A stretch of 64,000 nt of DNA from a virus. Numbering within the stretch: position 1 is the first letter of the stretch; each line of letters starts with the position of its first letter. The notes beneath the pieces are model-generated. The model made no database searches and was not told the origin of the DNA. It worked only from the letters and a program-made list of their open reading frames with translations. The stretch lies in IMG/VR virus record IMGVR_UViG_3300045988_168437. The stretch is one strand, 5' to 3'. The position numbers and the translations under genes were made by a program. This document shows positions 2,735 through 59,724 of the stretch, piece by piece.

Positions 2735-3025
2735 ATGAAAAATATTTCATTAGTGCAACTTAGAAAAGATTACAATTATCTAAATAGTAAAATTTCTTAT
2801 CATGTGTTAAATGAAGATGAACTATTAAATGAAGTTGTTCCTAAAATGTTGAGCGGGAAAATGGATTTAAAAAACTTTATTCTGTGGGCAATAAAAGATA
2901 CTATAACATATGTAGTAGAAGACAGAGAGGCAATGAATACAAAAGAAGACATTGAATTTATTGAATCAGATAAAAGATTTAAAAGGATTCTTGACAGATA
3001 CGATATTGATATAGAGGAGGTTTAA
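2735..3025 (+). CDS. hypothetical protein (tandem paralog A)
   Basis: ATG 2735 after SD aaaggcggtga; upstream part of the track ORF overlaps the promoter. Similar to the next ORF (LRKDYNYL.. / LRADFEYL.., NFILWAIKD / QFLLWSIWD). Confidence 0.6.
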   Translation: MKNISLVQLRKDYNYLNSKISYHVLNEDELLNEVVPKMLSGKMDLKNFILWAIKDTITYVVEDREAMNTKEDIEFIESDKRFKRILDRYDIDIEEV

Positions 3026-3026
3026 T

Positions 3027-3347
3027 ATGAATATAGAGCAACAATTAAAAGGATTAGAAATAAAACAATCTACAACTACTCTAAGAGCAGATTTTGAATA
3101 TTTAGATGATAATATCAATTGGTATCTAATTGATGAAGCAATATTAGTAACAGAAATTGCTCCAGGATTGCAATATGGAACACTAAATCTAAAACAATTT
3201 TTGCTTTGGAGCATCTGGGACATTATTGCTTTTGTTATTATAGAAAATCATGACGAAGATGATGTCAATTTTGTTAAAACAGACAGTAGGGTTAAAAGAA
3301 TCATAAGAAAATATGGTTTAAAAGAAAGTATAGAAAAATTACTATAG
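3027..3347 (+). CDS. hypothetical protein (tandem paralog B)
   Basis: 106-aa ORF, SD gaggagg; paralog of 2735-3025. Confidence 0.6.
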   Translation: MNIEQQLKGLEIKQSTTTLRADFEYLDDNINWYLIDEAILVTEIAPGLQYGTLNLKQFLLWSIWDIIAFVIIENHDEDDVNFVKTDSRVKRIIRKYGLKESIEKLL

Positions 3348-5770: not shown

Positions 5771-6718
5771 ATGAGTAATTGTTATAAAGAGTTTTTAGGA
5801 TATATGAAAGATGTGCAAGGAGTTGATAATAAAACTCTAGTATGTTACGAAAAAAATTTAAAAGACTTTAACGAGTATATTTTTGGCGGGAAAGCAGATA
5901 CTACTTTTGAAGAAATAGCAAACTTAAAAGTATCTGAAATACAAACAAAATGGCTCAATAGACTTAAAGATGAAAAAGGATATAAATCAAATACCTTAAA
6001 TAACCGCATAATTACACTTACAAGACTTTACACATATATGGTAGGAGAAAACTATACTACTGTAAATAAAGGCAAACTAATACCTCATTACAAAGGCGAC
6101 AAGAAAGTTAAAAAAGAAATATCAACTGATGATTATATATCTTTATTAGAAGAACTTAGAAAAAATAGAGATAAAAACTTCACTAGTCTTAGAAATTGGT
6201 TTATGGTAGAATTCTTTTTAGCAACTGGACTTCGTAGAGCGGAAATCATAGCATTAGACATCGAAGATGTAAATATTCTTACTGGTGAAATAAAAGTCAC
6301 TAGAAAATATGACGAAGGTGTTAAATTTGGTAAAGAAAGAATAGAGTATCTTCCAGAAATACTTTTAGATGATTTACACTATTATCTTTCACGCAGATTA
6401 GACATAGAAACAGATAGTGATGCTTTCTTTATTTCTACTCATAAGAAAAGAATGTGTGCATCTAATATCAATAAGTTGCTTAATAAGATAGCAGATAATA
6501 ACGGCATGAAAATACACCCTCATATGCTTAGAGCGGGATTTTCAAGCAATACCATTAATAGTGGTAGGGTAGAATCATATGAAGTCGCAGAAGCGATGGG
6601 ACACAGTAATAAGACTACTACTTTGAACTATTATCATAAGTCTAATACAGAAGTATTAAAGAAAGTTGCCAACAGTAATATGATATTTGACAAAAGACAA
6701 GATGATAATGTAATATAA
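5771..6718 (+). CDS. tyrosine recombinase / integrase (XerC/D-like)
   Basis: LATGLRRAEIIALDIEDV (Arg box), HPHMLRAGF (HxLR), GHSNKTTTLNYYH (GH..Y) catalytic signature. Confidence 0.85.
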   Translation: MSNCYKEFLGYMKDVQGVDNKTLVCYEKNLKDFNEYIFGGKADTTFEEIANLKVSEIQTKWLNRLKDEKGYKSNTLNNRIITLTRLYTYMVGENYTTVNKGKLIPHYKGDKKVKKEISTDDYISLLEELRKNRDKNFTSLRNWFMVEFFLATGLRRAEIIALDIEDVNILTGEIKVTRKYDEGVKFGKERIEYLPEILLDDLHYYLSRRLDIETDSDAFFISTHKKRMCASNINKLLNKIADNNGMKIHPHMLRAGFSSNTINSGRVESYEVAEAMGHSNKTTTLNYYHKSNTEVLKKVANSNMIFDKRQDDNVI

Positions 6719-7470: not shown

Positions 7471-7631
7471 AAAAAAAAGAGGTAGATGTCGAACCCATCT
7501 ACCTTAAACAATATTGATATAATCAATCTTTAGAATTGTTTTTAGAGTTAATCTTTTTAAATTGTATTTTTATAATACCATAAAAGGATTGATTATGTCA
7601 AGAAGTACTGCTATTTTTTAAGGAGAATTTT

Positions 7632-8588
7632 ATGAAAAAAAAGGAAGAGAAATTAGAACACTTAAGAGAATACGGCATAGTCAATTTAAATGACGGCAGA
7701 TTAGTATTTTCGGCTTGTCATGATGTATCAAAAGAAGAAAATCTTACGATAATTAACGATTTAAACAAAGAAGACAAAGAAAAGAGAAACAAAATATTAG
7801 AATTCAAAAGATTTAATAGAAAGTTAGGAGGATTTTATTTTATGGTTTACAGTAATAACAAAGCTTTATTTTCTGAAATTCCAGAAGTTAAAAATGGGGA
7901 CTTACCTAAATTGCTTTATTTAGCCTCATACATGGATTATGAGAATAGACATGGGAATAAGATATGTAAGGTAATAGGAGGAAATAAAAAAGTCCCTATG
8001 CCTAAGAGAGAAGTTTTTAAGTTAATAAGATTTGCAGATTCAACAAAGGCAAAAAATTGGTTTTTAAAAATGGAGAAATTAGGACTATTATATATTTATG
8101 ATGATTCAGTAGAACTAAATGAAAAATATTTTATTAAAGGCTGTACTGGAACAGAATATAAATATAGTCGAGTTTATATTAACACGATAAGGGGATTATA
8201 TACTAATTGTGATTTAAGAAAACATAGACAAATTGGCTTAATATTAAGACTATTGCCTTATATGAATATAAATTCAAATATACTTTGTAGCACTAGTGAA
8301 GATGAAATTCACAAACTAGATAGATATGAAATTGCAGAAATACTTGATGTAAAAGACGATAAGAGAAATTTATCTAAAATGATAAGAACTCTTTTAAATC
8401 TTAAAGTTGATTTTGAAAATTATAAATTGCAGGTATTTAAATTAGTAAAAGTATATGACACCAATTTTGTTGAAGAATATTTTGTAGTCAATCCAATTTT
8501 AGCATATAAAGGAGATGACTATTATAAGATGCAAGAAATCCTAAAAACATATTTCTTTGATGAAGATGATATTAAAATAATAAGATAA
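7632..8588 (+). CDS. Rep-like replication initiator candidate (paralog 1)
   Basis: 318 aa; paralog of 16073-17008 (LGGFYFMVY/LGGFIHVCY, LLYLASYMDYEN/LIYLATYIDYNN, YFVVNPILAYKGDD/YFITNPLLIWKGND); followed by an iteron array. The Rep function is inferred from context only. Confidence 0.5.
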   Translation: MKKKEEKLEHLREYGIVNLNDGRLVFSACHDVSKEENLTIINDLNKEDKEKRNKILEFKRFNRKLGGFYFMVYSNNKALFSEIPEVKNGDLPKLLYLASYMDYENRHGNKICKVIGGNKKVPMPKREVFKLIRFADSTKAKNWFLKMEKLGLLYIYDDSVELNEKYFIKGCTGTEYKYSRVYINTIRGLYTNCDLRKHRQIGLILRLLPYMNINSNILCSTSEDEIHKLDRYEIAEILDVKDDKRNLSKMIRTLLNLKVDFENYKLQVFKLVKVYDTNFVEEYFVVNPILAYKGDDYYKMQEILKTYFFDEDDIKIIR

Positions 8589-8659
8589 ATAGATTCGCTC
8601 TGATTAATTTCAGGGCGATTTTTAATATTTTTGAACATTGGTGTATTTGAGGACGATTT

Positions 8660-8766
8660 TAAAAAAGTAAAAACCACTCTCAAAAGCCAATAAAGAGTGG
8701 TTCGCATAAATAATAGTTAATACTTCAAGAACTTCCACTCTACTACCAATAGAATGTAGTTCTCTT
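8660..8766 (-). ncRNA. candidate sRNA-1 (promoter to terminator, about 105 nt)
   Basis: Minus-strand promoter TTGTAA(8795-8800 rc)-16-TGaTATAAT(8773-8778 rc); terminator stem 8672-8680/8694-8702 followed on the minus strand by UUUUUACUUUUUU; no ORF or SD. Confidence 0.5.
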
Positions 8767-8772
8767 TTTTTA

Positions 8773-8800
8773 ATTATATCATATATGGAAAATTTTACAA
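8773..8800 (-). promoter_or_regulatory. extended -10 promoter of sRNA-1
   Basis: Reverse complement reads TTGTAA-16 nt-TGATATAAT. Confidence 0.55.
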
Positions 8801-8859
8801 TAGTTTTTTTACAAATAATAAATTTAATGTTTTTGAACCTTAGTGTATTTGAGGACGAT

Positions 8860-8966
8860 TTTAAAAAATAAAAAACCACTCAAATGCCGATAAGAGTGGT
8901 TTAAACTAAAAAAATTTTTATCTTAAGGAACTATCCATCTAAGGCTAAATAGAATGCAGTTCTCTT
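8860..8966 (-). ncRNA. candidate sRNA-2 (tandem paralog of sRNA-1)
   Basis: Promoter TTGCAA(8996-9001)-17-TGaTATAAT(8973-8978 rc); terminator stem 8873-8881/8894-8902 plus U-run; loop UUAUCGGCAUUU versus UUAUUGGCUUUUG in sRNA-1. Confidence 0.5.
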
Positions 8967-8972
8967 ATTTTT

Positions 8973-9001
8973 ATTATATCATGTATAGAAAAATTTTGCA
9001 A
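8973..9001 (-). promoter_or_regulatory. extended -10 promoter of sRNA-2
   Basis: Reverse complement reads TTGCAA-17 nt-TGATATAAT. Confidence 0.55.
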
Positions 9002-9521
9002 GAATTTATTTTTTAAACAACTTCATGTTTTTGAACATCAGTATATTTGAGGCAGACTTTTTTATATAAAATCCATGTTTTTAAACATTAGTGTATTTGA
9101 GGACGATTTTAAAAAAACACATTAAAAACATTGATATTTCAACGATTGCATAGCAATAGGATTTGATTAGGTTAAATTTAATGGTCTACTTTGAGGCAGA
9201 AAAAAACAACGATTTTGACACTTTGAGGCAGATTTTTAAAATGGCAGAGAATGTTGATATTTCAACAATAACTCCAATTTTAGGTAGTTGTATCATTATT
9301 ATTATTCTCTCTATATAGCTAACGCCAAATTCTTTTCCGATAAACGAGAAATATTCTTTAAATTTTCCCAAGCGATTAATTAGTTTTCGTGATATAAAAA
9401 CACATGGAAAATTCTGTTCAGATTTATTTTTATCTTCCCTCACTTCATAACAAATAGATAAGATAGAAACAACTAGATGTTCAGTCCAGCTAAAAAACAT
9501 CTGAACTTTTACAAATTATTC

Positions 9522-9550
9522 TTGACATTTTTATATTAAAATACTATAAT
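9522..9550 (+). promoter_or_regulatory. sigma70-type promoter
   Basis: TTGACA 9522-9527, 17 bp, TATAAT 9545-9550. Confidence 0.7.
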
Positions 9551-9582
9551 CTACTTATAAACAGTAAAGGAGAGATTCAATC

Positions 9583-9615
9583 ATGAAAAATAACTCTTCA
9601 TTTTATAGGAAATAA
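9583..9615 (+). CDS. 10-codon upstream ORF (MKNNSSFYRK)
   Basis: Strong SD aaaggagag 7 nt upstream of ATG 9583, located in the leader of the 9663 gene. Confidence 0.3.
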   Translation: MKNNSSFYRK

Positions 9616-9662
9616 GGGTTTTATACTTGTTGTATAATTCCCAAATAAAAAGGAGAAGGAAA

Positions 9663-10580
9663 ATGAAAGAAATCAATATTTATAACGAAAAAAAAGTAGA
9701 AGAAGTTATGTCAACATGGAAACCAACTGCAAGGAATTCTGCTAAAGGTGGTTATAAAAAATTACTTTTTTACTTAAAAAGAGAAGGTTCTTTAAAAGTA
9801 AAAGGGAAAAACTATTATACAACAAAAGACATGTTAGACAGATATTTAGAAGAGACAACAAATAAGAGTTCGTATCAGGCTATGAGTATTATTAAAACTT
9901 ATATGAACAAACTGTTTAGAGAGTTGGAAATTGATTATCAATTCGAAGCAATATCTAGTAAGCAATACATTAGAAATACAGACTTTTACAACAAAGAAGA
10001 AGTAAAACAAATAGCTCTATTAACTAGAAATGCACAGGATAGATTTATAATCTACGGACTGTTTAGCGGTCTAAAAGGCAGCAAGTTTTGTGAGTTATTA
10101 GATTTAAAAACGAAAGACATAGATTTTAAGCACAATCTAATTAAAATAAACAATAGAAAAATAGAAATGGATGAATTCATGACTATGATAGCTAAAGATA
10201 CAGTTAATCAAGAAATTTATTATAAGAAAGGGGAGAAAGAAAACACTAGTAAGTCATCTATGTTTTATGAACTTAATATGCATAGTGAATATGTTTTAAA
10301 ACCAAAGCCATACGCTAAAAACAATAAAGGTTTAAAGCCATTTAGTTTATGTGGATTTAAAACAAAGCTAGAAAAAATAAGTGCAGATTTAGAGGATTCT
10401 AGTTTTTATCCAGTTTTAGCAGACAAACTGTATAAGTCAGGAATCTTATATCAAATGAAAAAAATAGAAGAAGAAACAGGTATAGTATGGAAAAATAAAA
10501 ATCTTGATGACTGGAAAAAAACAGAAGGCTTAATTTTTGGTACTTCTGAAATTCTAAATATCTATAGACAAATGAATTAA
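9663..10580 (+). CDS. hypothetical protein, weak tyrosine-recombinase-like box
   Basis: ATG 9663 after SD aaaaggagaagg. IIYGLFSGLKGSKFCELLDLKTKDIDF resembles recombinase box I with K in place of R; no clear HxxR or Tyr box. Confidence 0.55.
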   Translation: MKEINIYNEKKVEEVMSTWKPTARNSAKGGYKKLLFYLKREGSLKVKGKNYYTTKDMLDRYLEETTNKSSYQAMSIIKTYMNKLFRELEIDYQFEAISSKQYIRNTDFYNKEEVKQIALLTRNAQDRFIIYGLFSGLKGSKFCELLDLKTKDIDFKHNLIKINNRKIEMDEFMTMIAKDTVNQEIYYKKGEKENTSKSSMFYELNMHSEYVLKPKPYAKNNKGLKPFSLCGFKTKLEKISADLEDSSFYPVLADKLYKSGILYQMKKIEEETGIVWKNKNLDDWKKTEGLIFGTSEILNIYRQMN

Positions 10581-12924: not shown

Positions 12925-13623
12925 ATGAATTTTAAAACAGATGAAGAAAGAAATAACTTTGTAATAGACAATATGAGCCTTGTACCATTTTTAGTAAATA
13001 GATATTTCATGAATTATGTTGGAATAGATTCTGCATGGGGATATGAGGATATTTTACAGCTTGGATATATTTCATTAATAAAAGCTACAAATAAATTTGA
13101 TGAAGATGTAAATATAAAATTTTCATATTGGCTAAGACTTTTCATGAAAAGAGAATTTCAAAACACTTTTAGAGAAGTCAGATGTGGAATCAGATATAAG
13201 AGAGACATACCTAAGAAAAGAGATATGGTAATTAAATTAGCAAATAATGGGTTTACAGATAAAGAAATATCTAAAAAGACAGGAATGTCTTTAAAAGATA
13301 TAGATAGCATGAAACAAATCTCATATAATGGCATCAGTTTAGATGCATTAGACGATGACGGAGAAGAAACAGATTTTACATCTATTGACAGACTTATGTA
13401 TAAATCTAAGAATTATTCTACTTTAGATATAGAAGAAGATATCTTAGAAGGCTTTTCAGAGCGAGATAAAGACATTTTTAAATTAGCTAAAATAGGTGGG
13501 TTTACACATAAAGAAATTGCTAAAAAATATAATATGTCTGCTAAGAATGTTGGAAGAATAATATGCGATATAAAAAAAGGAATGAAAGAAAAGATAAATC
13601 CAGATATGAAAAAAGTTAGCTAA
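12925..13623 (+). CDS. sigma-70 family RNA polymerase sigma factor
   Basis: Region 2-like YEDILQLGYISLIKATNKFDEDVNIKFSYWLRLFMKREF and region 4 HTH FSERDKDIFKLAKIGGFTHKEIAKKYNMSAKNVGRII. Confidence 0.8.
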   Translation: MNFKTDEERNNFVIDNMSLVPFLVNRYFMNYVGIDSAWGYEDILQLGYISLIKATNKFDEDVNIKFSYWLRLFMKREFQNTFREVRCGIRYKRDIPKKRDMVIKLANNGFTDKEISKKTGMSLKDIDSMKQISYNGISLDALDDDGEETDFTSIDRLMYKSKNYSTLDIEEDILEGFSERDKDIFKLAKIGGFTHKEIAKKYNMSAKNVGRIICDIKKGMKEKINPDMKKVS

Positions 13624-18217: not shown

Positions 18218-18304
18218 ATGAGAATGACAAGTAGAAGATTCAATAATATAGTTAAGAAAATGATTAAGGAGTTGATAGAAGATGATACTTGCAAAGAAAG
18301 TTAG
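18218..18304 (+). CDS. possible 28-aa basic peptide overlapping the tnpB start
   Basis: ATG 18218 after SD aaaggggg; MRMTSRRFNNIVKKMIKELIEDDTCKES*. Confidence 0.25.
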   Translation: MRMTSRRFNNIVKKMIKELIEDDTCKES

Positions 18305-19397
18305 ATTGCGCCCAAGTGAACTACAAGAAGAAAAATTATGGAAATCAGTAGGGACTGCAAGATTTATTTATAATTGGACTTTAAATAGGCAAGAAGAAAA
18401 TTATAAAGGTGGTGGTAAATTCATACCTGATAGTGTTCTTAGAAAAGAAATAACTCAATTAAAGAAAACTGACTTAAGTTGGTTAAATGAAGTATCTAAT
18501 AATGTTGCAAAACAAGCTGTAAAAGATGCCTGTGATTCATATAAAAGATTCTTTAAAGGATTGTCAGGTAAACCTAGATTTAAAAGTAGGAAAAGAAGTA
18601 AGAAGTCTTTTTATCATGACAATGTTAAACTTAAAGTTAAAGATAATAAATTAGTTAAGATTGAAAAAGTTGGGTGGATAAAAACCAATGAACAATTACC
18701 TATTGGAGTTAAATATACCAATCCGAGAATTAGTTATGATAATAAGTATTGGTATTTATCTGTAGGAATTGAACAGGAAGGAATCCAAGAAGAATTAACA
18801 GAAATATCATTAGGAATAGATTTAGGGTTGAAAAACTTAGCAATTTGTTCCGATGGTGCAATATATAAAAATATAAATAAAACTTGTACAGTCAAAAAAA
18901 TCGAAAAGAAACTAAAAAGATTACAAAGACAAATAAGTAGAAAGTATGAAAAAAATAAAAAAGGAAAGGAGTATGTCAAAACTAAAAATATTATAAAACT
19001 TGAAAAGCAGATACAACAAGTACATAGAAGGTTGACTAACATTAGAAATAACTATCTTCATCAAACTACGACAAGTATAGTGAAAACCAAACCATACAGA
19101 GTTGTAATAGAAGATTTAAGTGTTTCTAATATGATGAAAAATAAACATTTATCTGATGCTATAAGGAAACAAGGATTCTATGAATTCAGAAGACAACTTG
19201 AATACAAGTGTAAATTTAGAGGAATTAAGTTAGTCGTAGCAGATAGATTTTATCCATCGTCAAAAATTTGTAGCCAATGTGGAGAGATTAAGAAGGATTT
19301 AAAGCTATCCGATAGAGTATACAAGTGTGATTGTGGGCTTGTGATTGATAGAGATTTAAATGCAAGTATTAATCTTTCTAAATATAAATTAGCATAA
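18282..19397 (+). CDS. tnpB: TnpB (IS200/IS605-family OrfB, RNA-guided nuclease)
   Basis: KKVRLRPSELQEEKLWKSVGTARFIYNWTL N-terminus; RuvC triad candidates GIDLGLKNLA, VIEDLSVSNM, DRDLNASINL; zinc ribbon CSQCGE...YKCDCG. Confidence 0.85.
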   Translation: MILAKKVRLRPSELQEEKLWKSVGTARFIYNWTLNRQEENYKGGGKFIPDSVLRKEITQLKKTDLSWLNEVSNNVAKQAVKDACDSYKRFFKGLSGKPRFKSRKRSKKSFYHDNVKLKVKDNKLVKIEKVGWIKTNEQLPIGVKYTNPRISYDNKYWYLSVGIEQEGIQEELTEISLGIDLGLKNLAICSDGAIYKNINKTCTVKKIEKKLKRLQRQISRKYEKNKKGKEYVKTKNIIKLEKQIQQVHRRLTNIRNNYLHQTTTSIVKTKPYRVVIEDLSVSNMMKNKHLSDAIRKQGFYEFRRQLEYKCKFRGIKLVVADRFYPSSKICSQCGEIKKDLKLSDRVYKCDCGLVIDRDLNASINLSKYKLA

Positions 19398-19560
19398 TAT
19401 CATTAATAAGATAATGCTAATATGTAGGATGTGTTGTATCCGAATTTACGCCCTTGGAGAGTTATATCAAACGAAAGTAGGTTGTTATTTATAATTTCCA
19501 AAATCGAATTCGTAGAACAGGGAATTAAACAAGATTTATAGATATTTATAGATTTTTGGC
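19280..19560 (+). ncRNA. candidate omega/reRNA scaffold of TnpB (boundaries not determined)
   Basis: By analogy with characterised TnpB loci, the guide RNA overlaps the 3' end of tnpB and the right end. Hairpins are visible at 19390-19420 and 19494-19527. No right-end boundary could be fixed by eye. Confidence 0.3.
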
Positions 19561-19595
19561 AACAGAGATTTTCTCCTCTTTATTTAAAAAATAAG

Positions 19596-58717: not shown

Positions 58718-58746
58718 TTGACATATTTTTATAATTATGATATTCT
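58718..58746 (+). promoter_or_regulatory. promoter of sRNA-3
   Basis: TTGACA 58718-58723, 17 bp, TGaTATTCT (-10 at 58741-58746). Confidence 0.55.
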
Positions 58747-58752
58747 ATATGC

Positions 58753-58886
58753 ATAGAAATATTTTTGCTTTGAGTGAATGTTCTCAAAAATATTACTTAT
58801 TATAGAACACTCTTATTGGCATTTGAGTGTTCCTTTCGCAATAAGAAAAAAATTAGGGACGGGAGTTACCCCGTCCCTTTTGCTTT
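58753..58886 (+). ncRNA. candidate sRNA-3 (inverted homolog of sRNA-1/2)
   Basis: Hairpin 58805-58812/58825-58832 with loop UUAUUGGCAUUU, the same loop as the sRNA-1/2 terminator hairpins; ends at terminator 58855-58886; no ORF. Confidence 0.5.
58855..58886. terminator. bidirectional intrinsic terminator between convergent blocks
   Basis: 9-bp GC-rich stem AGGGACGGG 58855-58863 / CCCGUCCCU 58870-58878; U-runs on both strands. Confidence 0.8.
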
Positions 58887-58908: not shown

Positions 58909-59724
58909 TTATCTTTCAAATACTTCTATATATTTACTTGATGCAGTTACATAAATTCCTGATTTAGTAAGATACATATCAGTTCCAGTTCTTTCTATTT
59001 TCTTTACTATAGTTAATACTGTTCCAACTTCAAGTTTTCCACATACAGAATCTTTATTGAAATTTGGAGCATTATGCATATTTATTTCCTTAATTACTCT
59101 TAAGTATTTAGTTTTAGTAGTTGTAGTATTTGGAACTTGAGTTACTTTACCTTTCCCATTTGTACAATTTACTATATCGTTGACTTTTATTTTTCCTTTT
59201 GTTAAATTATAACAGTCTAATTTAAACTGTTCGTATTTTTTAGGATTTAAAACCATATATATTGGACATAACTTATAAGCTCTACCAACAACATCTGTAT
59301 GTCTTATTATATCCTTTTTACAATTTAGTCCTTTTCTATCACATAGCCATGCACATAATTGAACCATACTTCTATAAGTTGCATCTGTATAATGATTATC
59401 TTTACCTGTTGTCGCAACTTCAATTCCAACCGCATATGAATTAGCACTATTTGTAGCATAACACATTTCATTAATTGGTATTAATTGATATATAGTACCA
59501 TCAAGGTCTATTACATAATGAGCAGATGCATAAATATATCTACCATTTACTTTAGTTCCATTTGCAACGACATTGTTAAAGTAAGAGACTGTTGCACTTC
59601 CTTTTACATCTGCTTGACCTGTGTAATGAATGGCAACCTTTGTATAATTTAATGATGTTCCAGGTCTACCATATTTGTTTTTCTTTTGCCATTTTTCAAC
59701 TATTGTTGGTTTTTTAACTGACAT
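58909..59724 (-). CDS. N-acetylmuramoyl-L-alanine amidase endolysin (amidase_2/PGRP plus SH3-like C-terminus)
   Basis: VAIHYTGQ...SAHYVIDLDGTIYQLIP...YAVGIEV...RHTDV....KLCP. Confidence 0.85.
   Translation of the reverse strand: MSVKKPTIVEKWQKKNKYGRPGTSLNYTKVAIHYTGQADVKGSATVSYFNNVVANGTKVNGRYIYASAHYVIDLDGTIYQLIPINEMCYATNSANSYAVGIEVATTGKDNHYTDATYRSMVQLCAWLCDRKGLNCKKDIIRHTDVVGRAYKLCPIYMVLNPKKYEQFKLDCYNLTKGKIKVNDIVNCTNGKGKVTQVPNTTTTKTKYLRVIKEINMHNAPNFNKDSVCGKLEVGTVLTIVKKIERTGTDMYLTKSGIYVTASSKYIEVFER

Follow-up and report, generated by a model that had tools for sequence, protein, structure and literature searches.

The stretch of DNA analyzed here, referred to as the window, comprises 64,000 nucleotides (nt) of the IMG/VR virus record IMGVR_UViG_3300045988_168437. 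Two small RNA (sRNA) genes, designated u1 and u2, lie on its minus strand between iteron-like direct repeats, immediately downstream of a rep-like gene. An initial annotation, made from the letters alone, had likened these genes to the copy-number or incompatibility RNAs of plasmids. To judge from their sequence and predicted fold, u1 and u2 are genuine structured sRNA genes of the family of type I antitoxins found in Clostridioides difficile, from which the toxin gene is absent. The features of the two units are as follows.

8661 to 8767, minus strand: u1 sRNA, consisting of a 5' bipartite stem-loop (SL1), an A/U-rich linker, a terminator stem-loop (SL2) and then a U-run
8863 to 8967, minus strand: u2 sRNA, with the same architecture as u1
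8800 to 8773, minus strand: u1 promoter, TTGTAA-16-TATAAT, TG-extended -10 box (preceded by TG), score 10/12
9001 to 8973, minus strand: u2 promoter, TTGCAA-17-TATAAT, TG-extended -10 box (preceded by TG), score 10/12
8672 to 8702, minus strand: SL2 of u1, stem AACCACUCU/AGAGUGGUU, 13-nt loop, then UUUUUACUUUUUU
8874 to 8901, minus strand: SL2 of u2, stem AAACCACUC/GAGUGGUUU, 12-nt loop UUAUCGGCAUUU, then a U-run

Promoters, hairpins and predicted transcripts

The two units are repeats of approximately 200 bp that occupy positions 8621-9020 of the window, with a spacing of 202 and 198 bp. The TG-extended promoters that had been read on the minus strand were both found. Promoter-like sites as a class were not enriched in the AT-rich window (the promoter scan found 18 versus 15.5 expected), so that the support for these two rests on their identical placement in both units and on their conservation in relatives. 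The SL2 hairpin, 9-11 bp with a loop of 12-13 nt, lies approximately 70 nt past the -10 box and is followed on the minus strand by a T-run. The hairpin pattern AACCACTC..GAGTGGTT occurred at 8672-8702 and 8874-8901 and had no match in 100 shuffles. Neither hairpin was listed by the terminator scan, because that scan admits only loops of 3-8 nt.

The predicted RNAs extend from approximately 8767 to 8661 and from approximately 8967 to 8863, giving lengths of 105-107 nt, close to the 105 nt initially estimated. They have no open reading frame (ORF) in common and no Shine-Dalgarno (SD) sequence, and both fold better than shuffled sequence (u1, -29.9 kcal/mol, z = -4.0; u2, z = -3.0). An ORF of 61 codons at 8522..8707 extends across the terminator of u1, and its ATG is missing in unit 2. 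The sigma-A-type promoter and the Rho-independent terminator of each unit are predictions by consensus match. The loop motif UUAUyGGCwUUU, which had been singled out as conserved, was present in most members of the family described below. The compensatory changes claimed for the two terminator stems were not confirmed; instead, the SL2 stems of u1 and u2 have a common core, AACCACUC/GAGUGGUU, and differ by a shift in register and by insertions and deletions around it. The view of u1 and u2 as independently promoted, terminated and non-coding minus-strand sRNA genes among iteron-like repeats 3' of the rep-like gene was thus retained from the initial annotation.

Homology to type I toxin-antitoxin modules

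It was previously found by Peltier et al. (2020; PMC7699646) that gp33 of the C. difficile phage phiCD38-2 and its relatives are type I toxins with antisense RNA antitoxins. Toxicity, neutralization, plasmid stabilization and trans-protection despite 3 mismatches were all demonstrated in that study (PMC7699646). When positions 7600-9700 of the window were used in a sensitive blastn search, only 8848-8982 (unit 2) was matched, and the subjects were unannotated intergenic DNA in C. difficile phages and small plasmids. Among these matches, the antitoxin sRNA family was not annotated in the public phage and plasmid records. In phiCD38-2 gp33, phiCD506 and pCd1_2, the same hairpin constitutes the 3' coding end of a small hydrophobic toxin (examples from these loci are MDNFLLNVLAGVIASLIFYIISKLFRQVKNHSAQKSGWEF... 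and MAIDFLLSILAGIISAFIYEKIKNHSNANKSGSKK) and a conserved TTATTATATCA, located approximately 100 nt downstream of the hairpin, is the -10 box of the convergent RNA. In intact toxin-antitoxin (TA) modules, the sequence that forms the antitoxin's terminator hairpin also encodes the C-terminus of the toxin, KNHS..KSG.

The identity of the toxin-linked loci was supported by NCBIfam NF047374 ("type I toxin-antitoxin system toxin"), with which gp33 scored 94 bits versus a cut-off of 60; short toxin variants fell under the cut-off, yet had E values of 4e-7 to 4e-12. Moreover, the published cloning primers for CD0904.1-RCd13 and CD0956.3-RCd14 were exact matches to toxin-linked loci used here. When aligned between the -10 box and the terminator, the window units were homologous to the toxin-linked antitoxins across the whole sRNA.

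A covariance model, R1, trained solely on nine toxin-less relatives, found exactly three copies in the window: u2 with 108.5 bits (E ~1e-18), u1 with 98 bits (E ~1e-16) and a third, divergent unit, u3, with 43.7 bits (E ~6e-6). The next best match in the window had E = 0.1. R1 also detected the toxin-linked antitoxins, with scores of 53-64 bits. In a specificity control of 742 kb of loci, most of them retrieved by an unrelated 15-mer scan, there were 3 matches, all of them toxin loci that had been added deliberately, and the model thus finds the family specifically. The generic hairpin and 15-mer patterns tried on viral contigs were discarded, as they mostly returned unrelated terminators or chance matches.

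In a model-based alignment of 43 distinct members, 89.9% of the cells paired and 14 of the 22 pairs had a compensatory change, values somewhat favored by the fact that the sequences were fitted to the model. Slid controls of the same alignment gave 36-55% paired cells and no shuffle attained the observed values. For the toxin-less units alone, 94.2% of the cells paired and compensatory changes were present in 10 of the 22 pairs. MAFFT combined with RNAalifold recovered only SL2 from the mixed family; SL1 required the model-based alignment. With respect to both sequence and fold, then, u1 and u2 are homologous to the antisense antitoxins of this family. The initial annotation was right that they descend from true antisense RNAs, but this full-length homology to type I antitoxins, including the experimentally validated modules of the RCd13/RCd14 type, argues against the copy-number or incompatibility role that it had assigned to them.

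Loss of the toxin gene

Opposite each sRNA, the plus strand retains the end of a toxin reading frame.

8663 to 8713, plus strand: toxin-frame remnant opposite u1, KSKNHSQKPIKSGSHK followed by a stop, behind an in-frame TAA at 8660-8662
8865 to 8909, plus strand: toxin-frame remnant opposite u2, KIKNHSNADKSGLN followed by a stop, behind an in-frame TAA at 8862-8864

The remnants correspond to only the last 14-16 codons of the toxin. The C-terminus of the toxin on L313, a human-gut metagenome contig discussed below, reads ...KIKNHSNRPKSGSHK for comparison with the u1 remnant, and the C-terminus of the u2 remnant, KNHSNADKSGLN, is identical to that of the toxin on contigs L308 and L320. Upstream of the two remnants there was no start codon, SD sequence, hydrophobic segment or membrane helix; iteron sequence was found there instead, and neither unit faces a convergent small hydrophobic toxin gene. 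Because of the in-frame TAA upstream of the KNHS remnant, and because no toxin was found in the window by tblastn, u1 and u2 are not complete TA modules. The possibility that the iteron itself codes for a toxin N-terminus (peptide MFLN(I/L)SVFEDDFKK) was rejected, since the frame is wrong, with an in-frame TAA in between, there is no SD sequence and a membrane helix would need a longer and less acidic peptide. The junction between iteron and hairpin is identical in u1 and u2 and therefore the loss of the toxin preceded the duplication. A tblastn search of the 64-kb window with three toxins gave noise besides the remnants, except that a weak match, KEHSNANKS, pointed to u3.

A related locus was noted in the C. 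difficile phage-plasmid phiCD211 (L003, approximately 2900-3130), where a toxin-like frame, ..INLNIATSLIACYIYDKAKNHSNANKSGFKR, has no start codon and the antitoxin gene beside it is identical to that of relatives with an intact toxin, METVVFNICLNIATSLIACYIYDKAKNHSNANKSGFKR. The locus seems to represent toxin loss at an intermediate stage.

Variation between near-identical genomes

Three near-identical relatives were compared with the window, L005 from IMG/VR and two human-gut metagenome contigs, L314 (ODJZ01000308.1) and L315 (OLOX01000258.1), each with an overall identity of 98-99%. The rep-like coding sequence differed from those of L314 and L315 at 2 positions in 957 nt (0.2%), while the sRNA promoters had 0-1 differences in 38 nt and the iteron spacers 0-1. 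The u2 promoter was identical in all three relatives. The bodies of the sRNAs were far more variable: u1 had 30 differences in 107 nt in L314 (28%) and 9 in 107 in L315, and u2 had 24 in 105 in L315 and 3 in 105 in L314. In L005, u1 and one iteron are missing, a deletion that is consistent with unequal recombination between iteron copies. The single unit of L005 differs from u2 at 9 of 148 positions, mostly, on reading both sequences, in the apical part of SL1, with flanks that are 98-99% identical to the window. The u1 allele, in turn, is identical over approximately 70 nt to unit A of L142, the first unit of a three-unit array at an unrelated position of another phage contig. Variation of the bodies amid a constant rep-like gene, constant promoters and constant flanks, together with the reuse of the u1 allele in L142, indicates that the presumptive transcribed bodies are exchanged as cassettes inside a constant frame.

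It was also observed that u1 is seemingly chimeric, with an SL1 and linker of the L313 type and an SL2 loop complementary to the loop of toxin mRNA of the L310 type.

A third unit and arrays on other contigs

The third copy found by R1 lies far from the origin region.

58753 to 58844, plus strand: u3, a divergent toxin-less sRNA unit, R1 43.7 bits, downstream of an endolysin/amidase gene (58909 to 59724, minus strand)
58718 to 58746, plus strand: u3 promoter, TTGACA, 17-nt spacer and TG-extended TATTCT, read from the sequence and the alignment
58805 to 58832, plus strand: SL2 of u3, stem GAACACUC/GAGUGUUC

The U-run of u3 is weak and the terminator hairpin of the endolysin gene comes next. Relative to the other units, the stem GAACACUC/GAGUGUUC contains two true compensatory changes. 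The toxin frame of u3, LPSLIFFLLRKEHSNANKSVL, has no start codon. The unit is 99% conserved in L125, a contig of an uncultured Clostridium metagenome-assembled genome, and is also present in L145. In other relatives, sRNA units are likewise found in this post-endolysin slot.

Head-to-tail arrays of 2-4 different sRNA units were seen in L142 (212-507), L136 (5119-5314), L309 (2094-2481), L306 (1578-1868) and L319 (2944-3230). Each of these arrays has one promoter, at its first unit, and one good terminator, at its last, and the hairpins in between are degenerate. The three-unit array of L142 holds both a u1-type and a u2-type unit and, like that of L136, is located in the post-endolysin slot. 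Immediately upstream of the sRNA arrays there are CRISPR-like mini-arrays of three repeats (repeat GTAACAGAATATATTCCAGTAAAACAAGGATTAAAAC) in L136 (4893-5077) and L134 (913-1082). A link between these TA modules and CRISPR arrays is already known (Maikova et al. 2018; PMC5961336).

Near-cognate toxins on other contigs

A degenerate SL1 pattern retrieved 22 human-gut metagenome contigs, several of which carry intact toxin genes with an SD sequence. The two closest to the window units are given below; further toxins were found on L310, L317 and L318/L322.

L313: toxin MDNFIVGVCSSIFAAAICGLAKKIYIKIKNHSNRPKSGSHK, TTG start, NF047374 E = 1.5e-9, under the cut-off
L308 and L320: toxin MDMREILSLIADLVTIATPIVAYIRKTAKNHSNADKSGLN

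The first 76 nt of u1 are identical to the antitoxin of L313, with an overall identity of 90%, and the duplex of u1 with the L313 target has a predicted energy of -146 versus -174 kcal/mol for the cognate pair. Similarly, u2 is 88% identical to the antitoxin of L308/L320, including an exact run of 43 nt over the linker and SL2, and its duplex with the L308 target has a predicted energy of -128 versus -172 kcal/mol for the cognate. The sRNA in slot 1 of L315 is 98% identical to the L313 antitoxin. Among 64 distinct toxin-less units, identity to a toxin-linked antitoxin of another element reached at least 90% for 26 and at least 95% for 13, with some at 100%. The window thus presents a mobile element with antitoxins but no toxin found, and matching toxins are present in other elements.

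The neighboring genes were examined for two of the toxin-bearing contigs, both of which look phage-like: L318 has genes for a repressor, a DnaB helicase, an HNH endonuclease and a major head protein, and L308 has genes for a repressor and an HNH endonuclease. When six toxin-bearing contigs were compared with the window, they had nothing in common with it besides the sRNA unit. One further match was noted. A 9-mer of the iteron core, GGACGATTT (8646-8660 and 8848-8862, compared with L313 and L142 unit A), recurs as the SL2 loop of the L313-type antitoxin, UUGGACGAUUU, on the opposite strand relative to the unit; this coincidence is probably due to chance.

Replication-origin context

The surroundings of u1 and u2 comprise the following features.

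7632 to 8588, plus strand: rep-like gene, putative replication function, with its own terminator at 8595-8618
8621 to 9232, plus strand: iteron-like direct repeats, four long copies of approximately 36-59 nt with starts at 8621, 8823, 9021 and 9071

The sole match of the rep-like protein was phrog_9501, and no match was found in Pfam, NCBIfam or PDB. A hypothetical protein encoded by the C. difficile phage-plasmids phiCD211 and phiCDIF1296T shares 31% identity with the rep-like protein. Homologues are also encoded on small plasmids of 6.7 and 11 kb, and short direct repeats occur just downstream of the homologues. The core TTTGAGGMMGA of the iteron-like repeats is present six times, always on the plus strand (8646, 8848, 9046, 9096, 9190 and 9222) and nowhere else in the 64 kb, where 0.16 copies would be expected; the spacing is irregular (202, 198, 50, 94 and 32 bp). 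Both sRNA genes sit between the first three long copies. Reading this arrangement as a rep gene plus iterons is reasonable but unproven, the Rep role being suggested by context, and the sRNA units are probably located in the replication origin.

The iteron cluster at 8646-9232 corresponds to 4975-5400 in L005, which has one copy fewer. Genes resembling tyrosine recombinases flank the origin region, a clear phage integrase at 5771-6718 (plus strand) and a gene at 9663-10580 (plus strand) that matches phrog_10004 and is weakly XerA-like. A gene for a sigma-70-family factor lies further downstream (12925-13623, plus strand). A search of 25 kb for near-identity to phages and plasmids returned only an IS607/TnpB-type insertion element at 18245-19570, approximately 74-75% identical to copies on plasmids of Clostridium botulinum and C. 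sporogenes and on phage c-st; the window thus does not correspond to a phage or plasmid already described. At the gathering score, an Rfam search of the whole window gave only RAGATH-18 (19451-19524, plus strand, 67.6 bits). A permissive Rfam search of 8500-9700 gave sub-threshold noise, the best being ctRNA_pND324 with 21.8 bits versus a gathering score of 45 (E = 2.4) on the plus strand, which is the wrong strand.

Orphan antitoxins proposed to act in trans

The best explanation of these observations, in which we have moderate confidence, is that u1, u2 and u3 are orphan type I antitoxin sRNA genes that would act in trans on the toxins of rival elements, in an anti-addiction or anti-exclusion role. 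The ancestor would have been a module with a gene for a small membrane toxin and a convergent antisense RNA of approximately 105-150 nt, the 3' ends of the two overlapping. The toxin gene has been lost up to the terminator hairpin, and what the sRNA gene retains is a strong promoter of the sigma-A type, a fold of two hairpins and a terminator. The iteron and the orphan sRNA unit would then have been duplicated together in the origin region, after which recombination with other alleles would have replaced the sRNA bodies, leaving two slots with different specificities. The sRNAs, presumably made constitutively, would pair in trans with the 3' part of near-cognate toxin mRNAs transcribed from a second element within the cell, for instance a resident prophage or plasmid. 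Pairing would start at the hairpin loop and extend to a duplex, so that translation is blocked or the mRNA is cleaved by RNase III. A kissing (loop-loop) intermediate has been suggested experimentally for RCd9 of the same antitoxin family (PMC5961336). The outcome would be that post-segregational killing, or exclusion of the abortive-infection type, is neutralized, an anti-addiction or counter-defense role from which the phage-plasmid would benefit.

A broader version of this explanation is put forward only tentatively. Type I antitoxin genes that lack a toxin may serve phage-plasmids of the gut and related phages as a dedicated and rapidly exchangeable arsenal that silences the toxin mRNAs of rival prophages and plasmids, with a specificity diversified by cassette swapping. 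The arsenal may take the form of single cassettes, at the origin and after the lysis genes, or, in relatives, of tandem arrays of 2-4 different units that share a promoter. If true, it would constitute an antisense-RNA form of counter-defense against addiction and abortive infection.

Several considerations weigh against the action of u1, u2 and u3 as trans-acting orphan antitoxins: 1) toxin-less antitoxins are an expected intermediate in the decay of TA modules, 2) the allele swapping could reflect frequent gene conversion and not selection, 3) the target is hypothetical, since neither the same genome nor a known host yielded a toxin gene, 4) for u1 and u2 the identity to the nearest toxin-linked antitoxin is only 88-90%, and u3 has no near-cognate, its best match being 74-78%, 5) the antitoxins have been described as very specific, and the tolerance demonstrated extends to only about 3 mismatches (PMC7699646), 6) a loop of 12-13 nt, as in SL2, is long for an intrinsic terminator and 7) the expression of all three units is a prediction from sequence. 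With regard to the third point, the sequence read is 64 kb of a genome of roughly 138 kb, and the motif scan of a 138-kb IMG/VR relative contig that is 98% identical to the region, which found no toxin, would overlook toxins that do not contain KNHS[NKS][ARD][DNP]K.

The main rival explanation is that the units are neutral remnants, that is, decayed TA modules in which the antitoxins persist, and are perhaps transcribed, only because they have not yet decayed, the variation coming from gene conversion in co-infected cells and conferring no benefit. Losing the toxin first is the sole viable order of decay, so that orphans are to be expected, and toxin-less units are indeed common in the family, accounting for approximately 20 of 38 distinct units in one set and for 67 distinct units in a larger set, although the division into toxin-linked and orphan units is rule-based and approximate. 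The phiCD211 frame without a start codon fits such a course of decay, as do the degenerate hairpins of the internal array units and the failure of both the tblastn search of the window and the duplex scan to find a target in the genome. Several features of the units argue against this explanation. All three copies retain near-consensus TG-extended promoters, u1 and u2 also retain the terminator hairpin and U-run, and the toxin-less units have preserved the fold with compensatory changes. Moreover, in genomes that are 98-99% identical, the variation is limited to the transcribed body with promoters and flanks fixed, the u1 allele recurs in different genomic contexts and the units have multiplied, to three per genome here and to arrays of three or four elsewhere. 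For these reasons neutral persistence is considered unlikely, though it is the alternative to be taken most seriously.

Control of replication, or insulation of the origin, is a much less probable function. The sRNAs would then set copy number or incompatibility, or would block read-through from the rep-like gene toward the recombinase gene, by antisense pairing or by convergent transcription. Transcription of both genes is indeed directed toward the rep-like gene, directly 3' of which they are interleaved with iteron-like repeats, a plus-strand read-through RNA would be fully complementary to both sRNAs and the arrangement is retained in L314 and L315. However, the rep-like gene ends in its own terminator and the units lie beyond it. 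Copy control is disfavored because rep differs by 0.2% where the sRNA bodies differ by up to 28%, which is not expected of an RNA whose pairing partner is a fixed rep target; the bodies vary by 3-28% against an identity of 98-100% in rep, promoters and iterons, and a single unit suffices in L005. Homologous units are present in other phages away from rep genes, at unrelated sites that include the post-endolysin slot, the vicinity of CRISPR-like mini-arrays and positions among tail genes, and the entire family traces to TA modules. Complementarity of u1 or u2 to the leader of the rep mRNA or to a replication primer was not evident, no rep translation-initiation region was prominent in the duplex scan and no curated Rfam family of counter-transcribed RNAs (ctRNAs) or antisense RNAs was matched at the gathering score. 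A sequence-independent barrier of convergent transcription at the origin is possible.

It is just as improbable that the units have been re-purposed as trans-acting riboregulators of host or phage mRNAs unrelated to toxins. In favor of such a role, a seed region could be provided by the conserved exposed loop UUAUyGGCwUUU, with which the fold and the strong promoters would be in keeping, and E. coli has orphan antitoxins that are expressed, at the orzP-only loci (PMC11264685). Within the window, however, an exact complement of the loop, proposed initially as a guide to targets, is found only inside u1, u2 and u3 themselves. When duplexes of the three sRNAs with 86 translation-initiation regions were predicted with duplexfold, none stood out credibly (the top matches were artifacts of long AT-rich duplexes or of a spurious ORF overlapping the units). 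In addition, a body with such a high turnover of alleles is not expected if the cellular target is fixed.

Significance

Some type I modules, for example hok/sok, exclude phages. In C. difficile, type I TA modules stabilize prophages and plasmids (PMC7699646). Action of the orphan antitoxins in trans, if real, would account for the ability of mobile elements to displace such "addictive" residents or to live alongside them, and the idea of the antitoxin mimic would be extended to type I systems. The TA family itself, the orphan type I antitoxins of E. coli and the antitoxin mimicry of phages directed at ToxIN and DarTG are already known. Literature searches returned no account of type I antitoxin genes without a toxin in phages or phage-plasmids, no account of arrays of such genes or of their turnover as cassettes, and neither an antisense-RNA countermeasure carried by a competing element nor a mimic of a type I antitoxin. 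The sequences in the window provide a concrete and testable case, with strong promoters, cassette variation and matches to the antitoxins of intact toxins from the same habitat.

Comparison with known systems

The closest known systems are the short-toxin C. difficile modules CD0904.1-RCd13 and CD0956.3-RCd14 and the related phage and plasmid copies, which have the same two-hairpin fold, the same type of TG-extended -10 promoter and homology to u1 and u2 from the -10 box to the terminator. The hairpin AACCACUC..GAGUGGUU is common to the window units and the C. difficile modules, and in the intact modules it encodes KNHS..KSG. The C. difficile modules also reside on phages and plasmids, and relatives of the units adjoin CRISPR-like arrays. 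In contrast, the RNAs predicted in the window are shorter, approximately 105 nt versus the 134-150 nt reported for the C. difficile antitoxins (PMC7699646, PMC5961336). In addition, the window units have no toxin gene, u1 and u2 are placed between the iterons of the probable replication origin and their bodies appear to be exchanged between near-identical genomes in a cassette-like manner, unlike the C. difficile modules as described.

The copy-control RNAs, such as CopA of R1, RNAI of ColE1 and the ctRNAs of pIP501, pT181 and pND324, resemble the window RNAs in being small, structured, constitutive antisense RNAs that are encoded near rep and engage in loop-loop kissing. However, they are complementary to the rep mRNA leader or the primer and are encoded upstream of or within rep, whereas the window RNAs lie 3' of rep, match no ctRNA model and vary while rep is constant.

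The orzP-only loci of E. coli, which are expressed in MG1655, are a precedent for an antitoxin sRNA that is kept without its cognate toxin gene, as in the window (PMC11264685). These loci belong to an unrelated family, are chromosomal and single-copy, and are not reported to be linked to phages, to be exchanged as cassettes or to form arrays. The logic proposed for the window has its counterpart in the pseudo-ToxI RNA of phage PhiTE, which is directed against the type III system ToxIN and consists of the antitoxin half only, in repeated form (PMC3475682). The orphan antitoxin-like proteins that counter DarTG follow the same proposed logic of a mobile element carrying the antitoxin half only (PMC11825919, PMC11481870). 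The difference lies in the target, as pseudo-ToxI and the anti-DarTG antitoxins bind toxin proteins, whereas the window sRNAs are predicted to act on the toxin mRNA by antisense pairing.

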